Shown here piece after piece: positions 6,068-61,254 of a stretch of DNA of 64,000 nt. Source of the stretch: Ostreococcus lucimarinus (taxonomy: Eukaryota). The translations under genes and the position numbers were made by a program. Each line of letters begins with the position of its first letter. The first letter of the stretch is position 1. The notes beneath the pieces are model-generated. The model was not told the DNA's origin, searched no databases, and worked only from the letters and a program-made list of their open reading frames with translations. The DNA is taken from NCBI GenBank assembly GCA_000092065.1, contig CP000589.1; one strand, given 5' to 3'.

Positions 6068-7716
6068 CTAATAGCCAGCCAAGTCCATCAAATTAATTTC
6101 GCTTTGGCAGTGACGCATCTGCTTCGTGCGTCTTAAGCCACTGGGGAGAGGTAAGGTCTCTGGGATCGTGGGTGGATGCAGCGCCGGCGCGCCCGAGTCG
6201 CGAAGAATCTCGTATCGCATCGACTGAACATCCAACTTATCGTCATGCGACGCGTCAGAGTTCGACAAACGATCATCTGAGATGCGCCGTTTAGAGTTTT
6301 GTTGATGTAGCTGCTGATCGTCGAGCGTTGTGTGCTTCATCGGTGCGAAAGATAGGGGCTTTGCGTTGTCCTCATCCTCAACCAACGCCGACAAGTCTGG
6401 ACAGCTTTGAAATGACTTTAGCGCTGAAGTCTTCTCATCCGGATTAGCCTTAACGAAACGACCCTTCACGCGAACGCGCGCGTCTGCGAGCGTTTTACGG
6501 CATTCATAGCGCACCACTTTCTTCAACCCCATCAATCGACGCTCGCGCTTGGCGCGATATCTGTCGAGCTGCGCTTGGCGCTCCTTGCTCACCACGCGTC
6601 GAGGGATGCCGAAGAGATCGCTCGACATCGGCATCATTATGGGTGGAAAAGCCCCGGGTGGATAGGAACCTACCGTCTCTGCGGGCCCACGCTGCGCCGC
6701 GGGCAGTCCCAATCCAAGAGGCGACGGTCGCGGAGTGAAATTATCTCTCGCGCTCTTCGAGACGTACGCCTTGGCGGCGGCTTGATTCGGGCTCACCGCT
6801 TGAATCTGATCCGCCACCGCCTCCAGAGCGGCGGAAATAGACGCCGCATCGCCATCGAATAAAAGCGCCGACTCTGTTTCGGGCATCTCCAGCAAAGAAG
6901 CCAACGGATCGTCGTCCAAATCGAAAATCATCGTGTCGCTATTACTCGACATTCGCGGCGCCCTTGGACTCGTATCCTCTTCTCCGTTCTCACCTAAATT
7001 CAAAAACACGCCCACATCCCACGCACTGATCGTCGCGTCCATGCTCGACGTCGAATCGTGCGTCGTCGTCTTCGCATCGTCCCTCTTAAACAAACTGAAA
7101 CTCTTCTCCCTCAAACTCTCGCTCGTCCCGCGTCCTCGTCCGTCCTCGTCCTCGCGCCTCGCGCTCGCCGTCGCGCTCGCCGCCGCTTTCCAATCCCCGC
7201 ACTCCTTCGCCTCACTCAATCCCGCCTCGAGCGTTCGTTTATACCACTCATCCACCGTGATCCTCTCGTGTCTCGCCGCGACCTACGGCGTTCAACCGCG
7301 TCCCGATCGTCAGTCCGTCGCGTCGTCGTCTCGCGCGCCCAGTCGACATCGCTCGTTCGCGCGCGCGTTCGTTTCGCGAATATCCGCGCGCGCGCGCACC
7401 GCGTTCGCCCCGTGCACGCGCGCGTCGCACGTCGCGCACAGGAACGCCTCTGCGCCGAATCGAAGCGCGATCGCGGGCGTAAAAAATCAGTCCCAATCCT
7501 CGTCGCGCGCGTCTCTCGTCGCGCGCGTCGCGCGTCTCTCGTCTCTCGTCTCTCGTCGTCGTCGTCCATCCGCGTCAGCGCGCATCGTGTCGCCGCGCGC
7601 GCGTCCATCCGCGTCTTTTTCGCGCGTTCGCGACGCGTCTCTCGTCGCGCGCGCGCACCGTCGGCGAGACAAAATATATCGGCGTCGCGCGCGCGACACG
7701 CCGCGCACGCGGGCAT
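6068..7716 (-). CDS. CONSTANS-like transcription regulator (one B-box + CCT motif), three exons
   Basis: Exons 7716..7659, 7449..7400 and 7282..6068. Introns are 7658..7450 (GTGCGCG..GCGCAG) and 7399..7283 (GTGCGCG..CTGAC..CCGTAG). The joined B-box is CAACRARDADIFCLADEAFLCATCDARVHGANAVAARHER. The CCT motif is RYRAKRERRLMGLKKVVRYECRKTLADARVRVKGRFVK. Frame is kept: 58+50+1215 nt = 441 codons. Confidence 0.8.
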
Positions 7717-24249: not shown

Positions 24250-26874
24250 TTAAGAAAACGCGAGTAGATTTTCAACGGTCACACGGCGCGTCTTGACAAT
24301 CGCCAACAACTCAACTGAAGCGATGGACACCAAAAGGAAGAAAAACGCGGCGTTACCACCCGCTTGAGACAAAACTTGAAGCGGAGGTAGCTTGTACTTC
24401 CGTGTACACGAGTATGGGAAATTTTCTTTAGTCCAGGCACACATTCGATCGCGACCGATTTCATCAAAAATTGTGCGGAACGTGTTCAAGACGAGCGCGT
24501 CATTTCGATCCATCACTGCCGTATAGCTCACCGCGATGCCGCCCGCTTTATATTCATCTGTTGTGAGTATCAAGGAGCCATGTACTGTTCCGCTGATGTG
24601 GTTGGTAAAATTGGTTTGCTGATTTTGAAAAAAGGTGTCGAAAGTAGCGTTCACCGTGCCCATCATATTTGCGTAGTACTTGTATGAAGGACCAAATCTG
24701 CCCCACGGACGGAGGTAAGCCGATGGCTGCCGCCCATAATCCGCGTCACTATAGCTCAATATCCCTTGGCCAGGTCCAAATGAAGGCGTGGACTGCTCAA
24801 GCTCGCTTAAACCCGAGTTCGTCAGCGATGGTTCTTCGATTTTGGCTAAACATTCATCGTATGTCCAATTCTTGCCATACCAGATAGCGTCCTTCAATGG
24901 ACGACACGTGAAACCTTCCTTTTCGAGGACATTTTCTACCACCGTTTCCGTAAACTCCTGAGTCGCGTAAAACTGCAGGAGCAACGCAAATACAATCAAA
25001 GAGGCTGCCCCGAGAACAAAGCACACTAAAAGTGTGCGTATAGGTGACATGACGAGGTCCAGATCGGTCACTCGGAACCACTTGTCCTCCATCGGTAAAC
25101 GTGCCTTCCAGCCCAGAGGATTGCTCGCGGGGAGGCGCTTGATTATGATGGCCACTATCCACATGAGGCTTGCGGCGATGAACTGAGCGTTACCATATGA
25201 GAGAGAGAGGCGCGTGAGTGTATCGGGCGGGCCTGACTTTTTGCACTCGTACGGCGAGTTTTCCTTCGTGAAAAGGCACACCTCGTCGCCTGCGACATCC
25301 ATCATGGCTTTCCACACCTCGACTGCATCCGCCTTGAGTGCGTCTGTCCATGAGTTGGAAGGTGCATTGATTAGAATACGAGTCGACTGGGGTTTTCCTC
25401 CAACGAGAAACGAAGCCGGATCTTCCCAGTGATCGAGATCGGTCGTCGCGCTGTATTGAGTCAGCGTAGCGTTTGGGCGTTCTTTGCCCCAAAACGCTTG
25501 CGATGAAACGCCTTCTTTGGATGCATTAAACGGAACATATTTCGCTTTGATTGGGACCGGATTCGGCATGTTCAATGGATCGCCCTGCCAGGATTCGAAA
25601 TTAATATTATCCACCGTGATGTCCTGTAAAGCAGCCTTGCAGTCGTCGAACGTATATCGCACACCGTAACCGAGGTTGTCTGTCGTCAACGGCGTGCAGT
25701 TGTATCCAGGCATTGCCCAAGAACCTGTGATTTGAATATCGGTGATGTACTGCGAAGTCGACGAAAAGTACTGGTAAAACCATGCAAACGTTCCTACACC
25801 GACGGCACAGATGGTAAGCGAAAAGAAACCAACGACCAGCGTGTTCGACACGAATTCGAGCGGCTCCTCGTCGTAAAATTCGGGAGGAAAAGATAACTTT
25901 TCAATCCAGGTTTTCTCATTGGTAGCCTTTGGAGCTTTGCGGAAAAAGCCTATGAAGGTGGGTAAAGTAGCAAGGAACACGGTGATCACGAGCCCAGCAT
26001 TATTATTCGACAGACCAATCATTTCTAAAGCAGTCATTCTTTTCGACTTCAAACACTTGTACGGCAAGTTGTGCTTGGTGAATTCGCACACGTCGCCTCC
26101 ATTGACGTATTCAATCGTCTTGCTGAACAACTGCAAGAAATGAGCCGCGCTGGTGTTAAAAGTCTCGCAATCGCCGACGATTCCATTGGTGCTGCCACCT
26201 CCGGAACGCCTGATTTGGCCCGCGTTGCACGTCGCGCCAGACGGGTTTGGGTACTGCCTGCAGTCGCCGTTGTTTACAACTTGATTGATGTATGTTTCAA
26301 TTTCTGGCGTACGTGATTCCGGAAGCTTTGGCCAAATACCTCGATGGGCTTGAACACTACCGAACGGATTGTAATACACCGAATTCTTCACCGAGCAGTT
26401 ATAGGGTATAGTGCCCCCGTTACTATAGTCAGTACGTGTCAGGTAACCTCCAGCGGCGATAGCCTCTGCATTGGCGATATCAAAGCCAATTGCACTCTCT
26501 GTCAATGGCACTATCTTCGTTAAACACTCTTCGTACGTATAGTTTAACCCGTAAAATTCATCCGGGCTCAACGGCGCGCAGTCGTAGCCAGCGATCGCCG
26601 TGGAGTCGCTGATGATCGTATCCGTCACCCAGCGCGCTTCGTCCGCGTAGTAAAACAACGACCCGATGAATGCCAAGGTAGCGAGCGTGTGCATCGTCAC
26701 CGCCCCGCCGTAGGCCATCCACACTGGTCCTTTGAATTCGAGATACCGCTCGCGCGCCCAATAAATTTCAGGTACTGGAAGTCTTCGTATGAATCGCTCG
26801 ACGGAGCCCCTCGCCTTGCGCGCGCGCTGCTTGATCGACGAGGGCGCCGGGGCCGATGCCGACGCGTGCGTCAT
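24250..26874 (-). CDS. six-TM membrane glycoprotein made of three tandem TM-Cys-ectodomain-TM modules; family not recognised
   Basis: The track start 26904 is TTG; ATG at 26874 (MTHASASAP). Modules span about nt 26793-25939, 25938-25138 and 25137-24253. First shared motif: GYDCAPLSPDEFYGLNYTYEECLTKI / GYNCTPLTTDNLGYGVRYTFDDCKAAL / GFTCRPLKDAIWYGKNWTYDECLAKI. Second shared motif: GDVCEFTKHNLPYKC / DEVCLFTKENSPYEC / DRMCAWTKENFPYSC. Each module is flanked by hydrophobic helices, and there are many N-x-S/T sites. Confidence 0.75.
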   Translation of the reverse strand: MTHASASAPAPSSIKQRARKARGSVERFIRRLPVPEIYWARERYLEFKGPVWMAYGGAVTMHTLATLAFIGSLFYYADEARWVTDTIISDSTAIAGYDCAPLSPDEFYGLNYTYEECLTKIVPLTESAIGFDIANAEAIAAGGYLTRTDYSNGGTIPYNCSVKNSVYYNPFGSVQAHRGIWPKLPESRTPEIETYINQVVNNGDCRQYPNPSGATCNAGQIRRSGGGSTNGIVGDCETFNTSAAHFLQLFSKTIEYVNGGDVCEFTKHNLPYKCLKSKRMTALEMIGLSNNNAGLVITVFLATLPTFIGFFRKAPKATNEKTWIEKLSFPPEFYDEEPLEFVSNTLVVGFFSLTICAVGVGTFAWFYQYFSSTSQYITDIQITGSWAMPGYNCTPLTTDNLGYGVRYTFDDCKAALQDITVDNINFESWQGDPLNMPNPVPIKAKYVPFNASKEGVSSQAFWGKERPNATLTQYSATTDLDHWEDPASFLVGGKPQSTRILINAPSNSWTDALKADAVEVWKAMMDVAGDEVCLFTKENSPYECKKSGPPDTLTRLSLSYGNAQFIAASLMWIVAIIIKRLPASNPLGWKARLPMEDKWFRVTDLDLVMSPIRTLLVCFVLGAASLIVFALLLQFYATQEFTETVVENVLEKEGFTCRPLKDAIWYGKNWTYDECLAKIEEPSLTNSGLSELEQSTPSFGPGQGILSYSDADYGRQPSAYLRPWGRFGPSYKYYANMMGTVNATFDTFFQNQQTNFTNHISGTVHGSLILTTDEYKAGGIAVSYTAVMDRNDALVLNTFRTIFDEIGRDRMCAWTKENFPYSCTRKYKLPPLQVLSQAGGNAAFFFLLVSIASVELLAIVKTRRVTVENLLAFS

Positions 26875-42514: not shown

Positions 42515-42598
42515 AATTTTAGACATCCATGTTGAAATCGACGGAGCCGTCGCTTATCCACAGCCCGTGCGCGCGCAGAGTCTCCACAGCGCGACGTG

Positions 42599-43876
42599 AT
42601 GCATCGCGCCCTCGCTCGAACTTCTCTGCGGGTATCGCGTCACGACTTAACGACATCAATCTCCAGTCCCGCGTCGCACGCGCGTCGTCGCGCGATGCCC
42701 GCGCTGTCGTCCCGAGCCGACGCCGACTCGAAATCTGTCCCCACCGGGTCGCGAGAGCCACACTTTCGGTTCGGTTTGCTCGCCGACATACAGTACTGCG
42801 ACGGCGACGACCGCAAAAACATCACCGGAACGCAAATGCGGAGGTACAGGAACACGCTGAACGTCGCGGAACGGGCGGTGGAGTATTTTAACACGCACGA
42901 GTGTGACTTTTTGGTGCACAACGGAGACATCACCGACCACCAGTGCGCGTTTGATTTCGCGAGCGATGATTTTAAGCCCATCGAGCGCGGAAGAGAGGAT
43001 TTAGGGGCGGTGATGCGGATATTGAGCCGAGCGAAGTGCGCGGAGTGGTTGTTCACGGTTGGGAATCACGAGCTGTATAATTTTACGCGAGAGGAGTTGC
43101 GCCAAGGCGTGGCGAGTCCTGGGAATTCGTTGAATTTGAAATGCTCGAACGCGGATGGGGAGTTTTATTACTCCTTCAAAGCCGGACCGGGATGGCGAGT
43201 GATGGTGCTGGATCCGTACGCGGTGAGTATTTATCGCAAAGGTCGCCAGCAAGGGCTGTGCGAGGAAGCGGTGGAGCTGTTGCGCAAGCACAACCCAAAC
43301 GTCGACTTGTTCGTCAAGGAAAATCCAGACGTGATAGAGACCGAACGCATGAGCGGGACTTTTCCGTACTTCAAAGACATCGAGGGGCTGGCTGGGCGAT
43401 GGGTGCCGTTTAACGGAGGATTGGGGAAAGAGCAAATCGCCTGGGCTCGCGAGACGATTCGCGCCGCGAGCGCCGCAGACGAAAAGGTATTAATCTTCTC
43501 TCACTTGCTCATCCACCCGCACTCCACGGCGAAAAGATCGGGCAAGACTTTGATGTGGGACTACGACGAAATTTTAGAAATTATCGAGGCCGAGGAAACG
43601 CGAGGGTGCGTGAAGTGCGTAGTCTCCGGCCACCAACACGAAGGCACAAAGTGGCAGTGCGAGAAAACGGGCGTGCATTACATCGGCATGGAGAGCCCGA
43701 TGCTAGCCATGGACGTGTCCCCGGGACCATTTGCCATCGTTGAAGTCTTCGATGATGAAATTGTATTCAAAGGGTACGGGCGAAACGAGGACTCGCTCTT
43801 ATTCCCTTTCGATCCAGAAGAACCACCGACGGAGCCGTTGTTGTGCAGTCTTCGTGTGAATTCGCATGATCCTTAG
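42599..43876 (+). CDS. Mn-dependent ADP-ribose/CDP-alcohol diphosphatase-like metallophosphoesterase
   Basis: Motifs: FRFGLLADIQYCDGDD, LVHNGDITD, FTVGNHELYNF, VVSGHQHEG, collinear with ADPRibase-Mn. The track start 42596 is GTG; ATG at 42599. Confidence 0.75.
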   Translation: MHRALARTSLRVSRHDLTTSISSPASHARRRAMPALSSRADADSKSVPTGSREPHFRFGLLADIQYCDGDDRKNITGTQMRRYRNTLNVAERAVEYFNTHECDFLVHNGDITDHQCAFDFASDDFKPIERGREDLGAVMRILSRAKCAEWLFTVGNHELYNFTREELRQGVASPGNSLNLKCSNADGEFYYSFKAGPGWRVMVLDPYAVSIYRKGRQQGLCEEAVELLRKHNPNVDLFVKENPDVIETERMSGTFPYFKDIEGLAGRWVPFNGGLGKEQIAWARETIRAASAADEKVLIFSHLLIHPHSTAKRSGKTLMWDYDEILEIIEAEETRGCVKCVVSGHQHEGTKWQCEKTGVHYIGMESPMLAMDVSPGPFAIVEVFDDEIVFKGYGRNEDSLLFPFDPEEPPTEPLLCSLRVNSHDP

Positions 43877-43945
43877 AGCGCCCATCACACCACGTGTTGT
43901 ATTACTTTTACAATCCTTGTTAGTCATATTCTGTCGCTTTGCGAT

Positions 43946-44023
43946 CGTCGCGCGCTTTCATCGGACGAAATCTCAGACGCAATGGCGTCTTTTGCGATTT
44001 CGTCGTCACGCGCGCGCGGACGT
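43946..44023 (-). promoter_or_regulatory. type-2 SECIS-like stem-loop in the MsrA 3'UTR
   Basis: Minus-strand RNA: CGCGCGCG-UGA-C-GACGAAAUC-GCAAA-AGACGC-CAUU-GCGUCU-GA-GAUUUCGUC-C-GAU-GAAA-GCGCGCG. It has a 9-bp helix II, an AAA bulge 12 nt after the UGA, a 6-bp helix III with a tetraloop, tandem G.A/A.G plus U.U quartet positions, and a GC-rich helix I. The 5' core is GUGA rather than the canonical AUGA. Confidence 0.5.
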
Positions 44024-44064
44024 CGCTGCGCGAAAACAAATCTACTACTTTGACGCGACGAAAA

Positions 44065-44673
44065 TCACCACCCGAAACGCGACACGCGCGGTTTATTGTA
44101 GTACTTTTGATGGTACTCTTCGGCATCCCACCACGGTGTCGCTAAAGAGACCTCCGGCGGGTAGATATCGGTGAAGAACTTTCGCTGCACTTGCTTCTCG
44201 CGCGCTTCCTTGGACGCCACCGCTTTTTCGTACTGCTCGGGCGTCTGCGCCCAAATAGCGCTCTTATACTGCGCTTTGCTTTCGTACGTGGGTTGATGCT
44301 CGCTCCAAAACTGTTCCAACAGCTTATCGAAGCTCGTCGTCGCCGCGTCGTACGCCACGTAATACCCCTCCGTGTGCCCGGTTCCTCCGGCACACACCGC
44401 TGAATACGTCGGGAAATCGCTCTCGCCTCCTGTGTACCCGACCCTGACGTTCTTCACGCCCTTGAGCGCGCTGAACGAGGCGTCGGGCCCCCAAAATCAC
44501 CCAGAGGCGAAGACGGCGAGTTGGCAATTTTCCGGGACGACGAAACCATCGCCGCGGTCGGTGCGCCGCGCGTCCTTGCTCGCGGGCATCGCGGCGAGCG
44601 CGCGGACGTTTCTTTTGTTCGCGGACGCGCGCGAGGGAGCGGCGACGCGCGCGGTCGCGACGGCAGCGCGCAT
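44065..44673 (-). CDS. MSRA: peptide methionine sulfoxide reductase A with in-frame TGA (predicted selenocysteine) at the catalytic position
   Basis: Track ORFs 44497..44934 and 44065..44457 are in the same frame, separated by TGA at 44499-44497. Read-through gives ..QLAVFASG-U-FWGPDASFSALKGVKNVRVGYTGGESDFPTYSAVCAGGTGHTE.., which is the MsrA GCFWG active site with U in place of C. Candidate starts are ATG 44673 (transit-like) or 44589. Confidence 0.75.
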
Positions 44674-44705
44674 CGGGACGCGCGTCCCGGTGTGACGTGG
44701 CCGCA

Positions 44706-44743
44706 CAGATTTCGACCGCGCGGGCGCGCGCGGTCGAAATCTG
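44706..44743. other. perfect 17-bp inverted repeat with 4-nt loop
   Basis: cagatttcgaccgcgcg ggcg cgcgcggtcgaaatctg. It lies 33 nt upstream of MsrA ATG 44673 and about 100 nt downstream of the stop of the upstream tandem gene. Confidence 0.85.
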
Positions 44744-44845
44744 AGGCGCACACCGGCGCGACGCGACGCGCGCGCGAGACGAAAGCTAGAGATATGATGA
44801 GTAAAAATATTAATCTCGCGCGCGACGACGACGGCGAGCGCGCGA

Positions 44846-45400
44846 TCAGCGCAGGATGACCAGAGACCAATCCGGGAACTTTGCGTTCCAGTATCGAACG
44901 CCCATCTGCGCGAGCGTTCGCGAGTTATCGTCAAACTTCTTCCCCGCGTACGCCAAGCGCACGAGCCCCGGCATGACTCCAGTTTTATCCGCGATGAGCT
45001 TTTTCACCTCGTTCACGCGCGTGGTGTCCGAGACGTCGATCCAGAACGGCCCTCCGTACTCGCAGTCGACGTGCAGCATGCTCGTGACGAGCAGACGCAG
45101 CGTCTTCGGCGGCTTTCTCATCGCCGCCACTTTCGCGTCGATGAAGCTCCCGAGCGGAATCCCTTTCGCCACGGCCTCGGCTTTATCCTTCAAGTATTCC
45201 TCGCGCGTCGGATCGTACATGGGCGTCCACTCCGAGCTCACCCCTCCCTCCCCGCGCGTCGCCGGCGCGTACCTCTCATCCTCCTCGTACCACGGGTACC
45301 CACCGTTCGGCGGGATCGTCGCCGTCGCCCCCGACCCCCCGGTCCCGGGCGCGTTGTTATACTTTGAAAACGCGAGGTCCGAGCTTCGATACGTCGGCAT
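44846..45400 (-). CDS. hypothetical protein with C-terminal ubiquitin-like fold
   Basis: ATG at 45400. The C-terminal ~85 aa (LRLLVTSML..FWIDVSDTTRVNEVKKLIADKTGVMPGLVRLAYAGKKFDDNSRTLAQMGV) follow the ubiquitin-fold pattern. Confidence 0.55.
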   Translation of the reverse strand: MPTYRSSDLAFSKYNNAPGTGGSGATATIPPNGGYPWYEEDERYAPATRGEGGVSSEWTPMYDPTREEYLKDKAEAVAKGIPLGSFIDAKVAAMRKPPKTLRLLVTSMLHVDCEYGGPFWIDVSDTTRVNEVKKLIADKTGVMPGLVRLAYAGKKFDDNSRTLAQMGVRYWNAKFPDWSLVILR

Positions 45401-60999: not shown

Positions 61000-61227
61000 C
61001 TACCCTCGCCTCGGTTTGCTCATGATTTCTTTCAACATCTGCCGCCTCGCCAGCTCTCTCGGCGCGTTCGCCGCCTCTATTTTCTTCTCCAGCGCCAACT
61101 TCTTCTCGCTCAAATTCTCCAACAACTCGTATCGCAGCTGCGGCATCGCTCGCGAGCGTCTATCGTAATTCTCAATCGCCGTCTTCGCGCTCGAACTGCG
61201 CGTCATCCGAAGCGCACGTCGACGCAT
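61000..61227 (-). CDS. small basic hypothetical protein (75 aa)
   Basis: ATG at 61227. Non-repetitive K/E/R helix (MPQLRYELLENLSEKKLALEKKIEAANAPRELARRQMLKEIM). Lies 27 nt downstream of the previous ORF's stop on the same strand. Confidence 0.35.
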   Translation of the reverse strand: MRRRALRMTRSSSAKTAIENYDRRSRAMPQLRYELLENLSEKKLALEKKIEAANAPRELARRQMLKEIMSKPRRG

Positions 61228-61254
61228 TCGTCAGTCACCCGCGCGCCTTCGTCG

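Follow-up and report, generated by a model that had tools for sequence, protein, structure and literature searches.

A selenocysteine-containing MsrA gene of Ostreococcus lucimarinus, predicted to be decoded through a type II SECIS element in its 3' UTR

Introduction

A selenocysteine (Sec)-containing MsrA of Ostreococcus lucimarinus was already published in 2007 (Lobanov et al., Genome Biol 8:R198, Table 2 and Additional file 2; PMC2375036). MsrA is listed there among the 26 selenoproteins of O. tauri and the 29 of O. lucimarinus (Table 2; PMC2375036). Additional file 2 places the O. lucimarinus gene at Chr_9 [236068, 236619] and aligns Ostreococcus MsrA with the Sec-MsrA of Chlamydomonas reinhardtii (AAN32904). 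The O. lucimarinus row of this alignment reads MRAAVATARVAAP...SRASANK, followed by DGFVVPENCQLAVFASG[U]FWGPDA...WWDAEEYHQK (PMC2375036). A Sec tRNA and 75Se-labelled proteins were reported for O. tauri, the labelling being unassigned to MsrA, and nearly all SECIS elements of Ostreococcus were described as having a long apical mini-stem and, in front of the quartet, an unpaired G instead of A (PMC2375036). In later surveys MSRA was among the most widespread algal selenoproteins (PMC7539508; PMC6627142), and Sec machinery has been reported in Mamiellophyceae (PMC6627142).

The E. coli (1FF3) and bovine (1FVA) MsrA enzymes end in a C-terminal tail with recycling cysteines. In E. coli these are C198 and C206. 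Selenocysteine is found at the catalytic position in PDB entries 4LWJ-4LWM and 4U66, presumably the selenoprotein MsrA of Clostridium (Alkaliphilus) oremlandii, which we take to be of the 1-Cys type. Bacterial Sec decoding depends on a SelB-binding hairpin that lies right after the UGA, inside the coding region.

Here we describe an MsrA locus in a 64-kb stretch of O. lucimarinus CCE9901 DNA (the window), in which an earlier note made from the letters alone had pointed to an in-frame TGA. The published O. lucimarinus row was identical to the product of the window's gene, with the same MRAAVATARVAAP start; the two are the same gene and no substantive difference was found between them. The Sec-MsrA gene at 44065..44673 is real, well supported and already known, and its recovery here is an independent rediscovery.

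Results and discussion

One reading frame with a TGA at codon 59

The MsrA coding sequence runs without introns over 202 codons from the ATG at 44673..44671 to the stop TGA at 44067..44065, and has a TGA at codon 59 (Table 1). The earlier note had described one MsrA frame that a TGA splits into two same-frame ORFs, and translation confirmed this. The listed ORF 44497..44934 terminates at the TGA 44499..44497 and shares its frame with the listed ORF 44065..44457. The note had also stated that the codon between the two ORFs is TGA. A TGA is indeed there, but it is not the sole intervening codon: 13 further codons, FWGPDASFSALKG (44496..44458), open and conserved, separate it from the GTG at 44457, which the ORF lister had given to the second ORF as its start. 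The minus strand reads GCC TCT GGG TGA TTT TGG GGG CCC around codon 59. Translation of 44673..44062 contains ENCQLAVFASG*FWGPDASFSALKGVKNVRVGYTGG, which reproduces the stretch ENCQLAVFASG-TGA quoted earlier.

Two start codons, 44673 and 44589, had been put forward. All orthologues begin with MRA..., which makes the ATG at 44673 the common start, shared also with the sequence of Lobanov 2007. The ATG at 44589 was rejected, as it was conserved in the closest relative alone. The presequence that follows the start is poorly conserved: among codons -45 to -19 relative to the Sec codon, 19-25 of 27 showed amino-acid-changing differences in the four divergent orthologues whose upstream sequence is complete, in contrast to the 18 codons adjoining Sec. 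This N-terminal part is probably an organelle transit peptide.

Table 1. Positions of the MsrA gene and its predicted recoding signals in the window
Feature	Position	Strand	Basis or remark
MsrA selenoprotein CDS, complete	44065..44673	-	translation, Pfam, alignments to E. coli/bovine MsrA, Lobanov 2007 sequence
N-terminal presequence, ~40 residues, Ala/Arg/Ser/Thr-rich, poorly conserved	44554..44673	-	orthologue comparison
PMSR (MsrA) catalytic domain	44089..44517	-	residues 53-195; Pfam and structure alignments
UGA codon 59, predicted to be read as selenocysteine; catalytic nucleophile of GUFWG	44497..44499	-	alignment and invariance
Terminal stop UGA	44065..44067	-	orthologue comparison
Type II SECIS, 3' UTR	43945..44023	-	fold, covariation, Rfam
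SECIS helix I, GCGCGC/GCGCGC, 6 bp	44017-44012 / 43955-43950	-	
SECIS 5' core G-UGA-C	44009-44005	-	
SECIS helix II, 9 bp	44004-43996 / 43972-43964	-	
SECIS unpaired AAAA, beginning 12 nt after core A	43993-43990	-	
SECIS mini-stem AGACGC/GCGUCU, 5-6 bp	43990-43985 / 43980-43975	-	
SECIS 3' core C-GA-U	43963-43960	-	

The TGA lies at the catalytic position of MsrA

For the Pfam and structure searches a Cys was written in place of the TGA codon 59. The Pfam family PMSR (PF01625) matched at profile positions 2-147 of 153 and scored 133 bits, the cut-off being 23.7; since the match covers residues 53-195 of the product, it spans the TGA codon. Solved MsrA structures matched the 202-aa product at E = 6e-31, which places E. 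coli and bovine MsrA in the same fold family. In a gap-free stretch of the alignment codon 59 corresponded to Cys51 of E. coli MsrA. The motif G58-U59-F60-W61-G62 thereby has Sec in place of the nucleophilic Cys of GCFWG, as had been claimed from the sequence earlier. The other active-site positions also align one to one: F60, W61, Y90, E102 and Y136 are equivalent to F52, W53, Y82, E94 and Y134 of E. coli. We take Tyr82, Glu94 and Tyr134 of the E. coli enzyme to be the sulfoxide-binding residues.

Outside the active site the proteins differ. The E. coli and bovine enzymes have a six-residue insert before the QY(R/K)SAI motif that is missing in Ostreococcus. Their tail with recycling cysteines is also missing; the Ostreococcus protein ends in NKPRVSRFGW, seven residues past the PMSR domain, and no recycling Cys was found in the C-terminal tail of the 202-aa product. 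In total, C50, U59 and C94 are the only Cys or Sec residues of the product, C94 being equivalent to E. coli Cys86. Judged by its sequence, the locus product is an MsrA outside the E. coli/bovine multi-Cys subclass.

The entries presumed to be the C. oremlandii MsrA (4LWJ-4LWM, 4U66) matched the window's MsrA at about 1e-26, and both proteins have a catalytic Sec and no C-terminal recycling Cys. The Sec signals are of different types, namely an intracoding hairpin in bacteria and a kink-turn SECIS in the 3' UTR in Ostreococcus. The Chlamydomonas Sec-MsrA (AAN32904) likewise uses a catalytic Sec (ATFALG[U]FWHPEA) and has the signatures QYKSA(I/V)W and WWDAEEYHQK in common with Ostreococcus. A eukaryotic 3'-UTR SECIS with a mini-stem has been reported for it, as for Ostreococcus. 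Its N-terminus, however, is much shorter, and the base before the SECIS quartet is A in Chlamydomonas and G in Ostreococcus (PMC2375036).

Public annotation stops at the TGA

The earlier note had expected ORF-based annotation to cut the gene short, and the public records bear this out. In GenBank/RefSeq the gene is represented by XP_001419753.1, a 'predicted protein, partial' of 143 aa (44065-44496) that begins with FWGPDAS right after the TGA. Metagenome gene calls for this gene and its orthologues all have 97-144 aa, and one such fragment was found on 715 contigs. Because gene calls are truncated at the Sec codon, marine picoalgae are represented in the protein databases by hundreds of 'MsrA' fragments that lack their catalytic head. 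The practical value of the present analysis is thus in annotation, as the public protein records of this gene are still truncated. The locus can also serve as a clean positive control for scans that seek recoded stop codons.

The TGA is invariant and flanked by conserved coding sequence

The partial record also suits the view that the TGA is a nonsense mutation which has disabled the gene and made it a pseudogene, or that the reference genome was wrongly sequenced or assembled at this point. Conservation of the codon was therefore compared at three distances. The TGA was present at codon 59 in 8/8 independently assembled contigs of the same species, obtained from different sequencing runs and having 0-1 mismatch over 733 nt, so that the TGC or TGT which the earlier note had allowed for on resequencing was not what these assemblies contain. 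It was found at the same place in 6/6 divergent orthologues (71-97% protein identity in the C-terminal part), and also in two algal MsrA genes at a greater distance (47-50% identity). In the six orthologues the surrounding motif was P-x-x-C-x-L-A-V-F-A-x-G-*-F-W-G-P. The third codon positions beside the invariant TGA varied, with GGG or GGA before it and TTT or TTC after it. Where the flanking sequence suffices, the orthologues also kept the gene order hydrolase, ubiquitin-like, MsrA, metallophosphoesterase and Vps18.

The codons on both sides of the TGA changed in a similar way. In the 18 codons 5' of the TGA, synonymous-only changes numbered 6-9 and amino-acid changes 1-5 in five divergent orthologues. 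The 14 codons 3' of the TGA showed the same pattern in divergent orthologues, the changes being mostly synonymous. This pattern indicates purifying selection on the coding sequence of the two flanks. As change is mostly synonymous on both flanks, the frame appears to be translated across the TGA, and the upstream ORF belongs to the gene, as had been proposed.

A related contig (L010) could be taken to favour a pseudogene, since its MsrA copy carries frameshifts upstream. The identity of the TGA in eight independent assemblies and eight further divergent lineages, the purifying selection on both flanks, and the conserved, covarying SECIS downstream nevertheless all speak against a mutation or error, and we regard its probability as vanishingly small. 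The copy on L010 occupies positions 1-722; in its 3' part and SECIS it hardly differs from another contig (L003), and the frameshifts lie upstream of residue ~60. These most likely reflect errors of assembly or of long reads and not a pseudogene.

It could also be argued that translation ends at the UGA or starts beyond it. The products would then be a short peptide from the N-terminus, an MsrA fragment of ~130-143 aa that has lost its catalytic residue, or both, and ORF callers and GenBank give just such models. Such a fragment would, however, be without the nucleophile and the FW pocket. Furthermore, conservation as protein with mostly synonymous changes extends over the 13 codons from the TGA to the GTG and over the 18 codons before the TGA, the orthologues share no ATG downstream of the TGA, and a SECIS would be purposeless. 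Termination or restart at this codon is thus very improbable, and uninterrupted translation through codon 59 is the reading followed below.

A type II SECIS element is predicted in the 3' UTR

Eukaryotic SECIS elements are defined by a non-Watson-Crick UGA/GA quartet, a helix II of ~9-12 bp and a helix I, and further by an unpaired AA 11-12 nt after the core. All of these features are present in the predicted hairpin downstream of the MsrA stop (Table 1). The 101-nt stretch 43930..44030 had a minimum free energy of -49.5 kcal/mol (z = -4.15), and 0/200 shuffled sequences folded as well. An equivalent hairpin was found 32-76 nt after the stop in every orthologue, with differing helix sequences. 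In a MAFFT alignment of seven orthologues UGAC, AA and GA alone were invariant. The RNAalifold consensus of the same seven contained helix I, helix II and the mini-stem, 17/18 pairs being kept through two-sided changes. The distance from the Sec-UGA to the SECIS core is 491 nt; the SECIS lies 55-56 nt past the terminal UGA, 55 nt being the distance to its core.

The Rfam family SECIS_1 gave the best hit when the 116-nt 3' UTR was scanned alone, matching over its full length with 26.6 bits (E = 0.0011), which is less than the gathering score of 35. No Rfam match was obtained in the whole window at gathering scores, and no SECIS was reported in a scan of 1.2 kb at E <= 10. The element is of the described Ostreococcus type, with G 44009 before the UGA and a mini-stem of 5-6 bp. 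The weak SECIS_1 score is attributed to the G-type core and long mini-stem, which differ from the mostly animal model. A model built from seven MsrA 3'-UTR hairpins, the window's own hairpin among them, scored 87 bits at 43945..44023, its sole strong match in the window. This seven-sequence alignment with its compensatory changes could seed a Mamiellophyceae-specific SECIS model, which would be useful because the Rfam model misses such elements at its default threshold. One orthologue (L002, 3443-3447) has A-UGA instead of G-UGA before the quartet; according to the literature, A is found there in just one SECIS per Ostreococcus genome.

The terminal codon of the gene is also UGA. Read-through at this position was rejected: two orthologues have TAA instead and the extension peptides are unconserved, and therefore the terminal UGA is a true stop.

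Read-through of codon 59 by a near-cognate or suppressor tRNA, which would insert Cys, Trp or Arg instead of Sec, is a different matter, since the inserted residue is not identifiable from sequence alone. Cys is inserted at Sec codons in animals under selenium limitation. A conserved and covarying SECIS is, however, specific to Sec decoding, and for Ostreococcus a selenoproteome, a Sec tRNA and 75Se-labelled proteins are documented (PMC2375036), which leaves only a very slight chance for another residue. The claim that this is a genuine selenoprotein, made in the earlier note, is upheld by the invariance of the TGA, the coding conservation on its two flanks and the covarying 3'-UTR SECIS. We are highly confident in predicting that the O. 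lucimarinus CCE9901 gene encodes a Sec-MsrA whose UGA codon 59 is recoded to Sec via a type II SECIS in the 3' UTR.

Proposed decoding and catalysis

According to the proposed mechanism a single-exon mRNA would be translated from the ATG at 44673 to the stop at 44067..44065, and UGA codon 59 would be recoded to Sec because of the type II SECIS in the 3' UTR (43945..44023). By the established eukaryotic pathway, SBP2 would bind the kink-turn core of the SECIS and recruit eEFSec with Sec-tRNA(Sec), and the ribosome would insert Sec at codon 59. Following the chemistry of the MsrA family, Sec59 would replace the nucleophilic Cys and attack Met-S-sulfoxide, whereby a selenenic acid would form, and a thiol reductant would regenerate Sec59. 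We thus infer both the incorporation of selenium and the enzyme activity of this MsrA from the gene and its relatives.

Cys50 (44524-44526) is located nine residues before Sec59. The window's MsrA, its six closest orthologues and the O. tauri sequence as published all have this cysteine; Chlamydomonas, the E. coli and bovine enzymes and the two algal Sec-MsrAs at a greater distance lack it. Cys50 might act as a resolving cysteine peculiar to this lineage and form a selenenylsulfide with Sec59. If true, these picoalgal enzymes would be regenerated by a route of their own, unlike that of the C-terminal-Cys type and that of the 1-Cys bacterial Sec-MsrA. The idea is unlikely, because by analogy with known MsrA structures Cys50 occupies the distal end of strand beta-1, probably at too great a distance from the active site.

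Neighbouring genes and scans of the whole window

The ubiquitin-like gene directly upstream of MsrA (44846..45400, minus strand) was identical to O. lucimarinus XP_001419754.1, and a second ORF of the window to the O. lucimarinus CCE9901 protein XP_001419526.1. Downstream, the stop codon of a convergent metallophosphoesterase gene (42596..43876, plus strand) and the 3' end of the MsrA SECIS are only 69 nt apart. With a gap of this size (43876-43945) the 3' UTRs of the two genes would abut, nearly touch or overlap as antisense. ORFs that overlap the MsrA locus, whether in another frame or on the opposite strand, had no Pfam match.

In the 64-kb window no tRNA genes were found, and none of the components of the Sec machinery (tRNA-Sec, eEFSec, SBP2, SecS, PSTK, SPS). 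The seven-hairpin model and a SECIS descriptor gave no second SECIS or selenoprotein in the 64 kb. Three further SECIS candidates were rejected. The additional matches of the seven-hairpin model were all weak; the one at 61147-61252 (minus strand) scored 18 bits and had no SECIS fold (z = 0.31). Of the two descriptor candidates, that at 25953-26014 (plus strand) lies antisense to a long ORF and depends on G-U pairs for its stem, and that at 6396-6468 (minus strand; z = 0.23) lies within the coding region of a CCT-motif protein. The ORF concerned (6068-7255, minus strand) contains a CCT-motif-like stretch, RYRAKRERR...VRYECRKTLADARVRVKGRFVK, and is CONSTANS/TOC1-like; the descriptor match in it is due to chance.

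Between the ubiquitin-like stop (44846) and the MsrA ATG (44673), at 44706-44743, two 17-bp arms (CAGATTTCGACCGCGCG / CGCGCGGTCGAAATCTG) form a perfect inverted repeat around a 4-nt loop. Its only similarity in the 1.2-kb Rfam scan was a weak one to unrelated sRNA/miRNA models. The palindrome was rejected as a part of the recoding system, as it lies upstream of the ATG, has one copy in the window and is absent at L001, the closest orthologous locus. It may act as a 3'-end/terminator hairpin or as a promoter element. At L001 a long (GTC)n microsatellite (590-625), which the window lacks, was seen upstream of the MsrA orthologue. In 4-kb bins the G+C content of the window ranged from 0.53 to 0.67 and was low at 20-28 kb, 40-44 kb and 52-56 kb.
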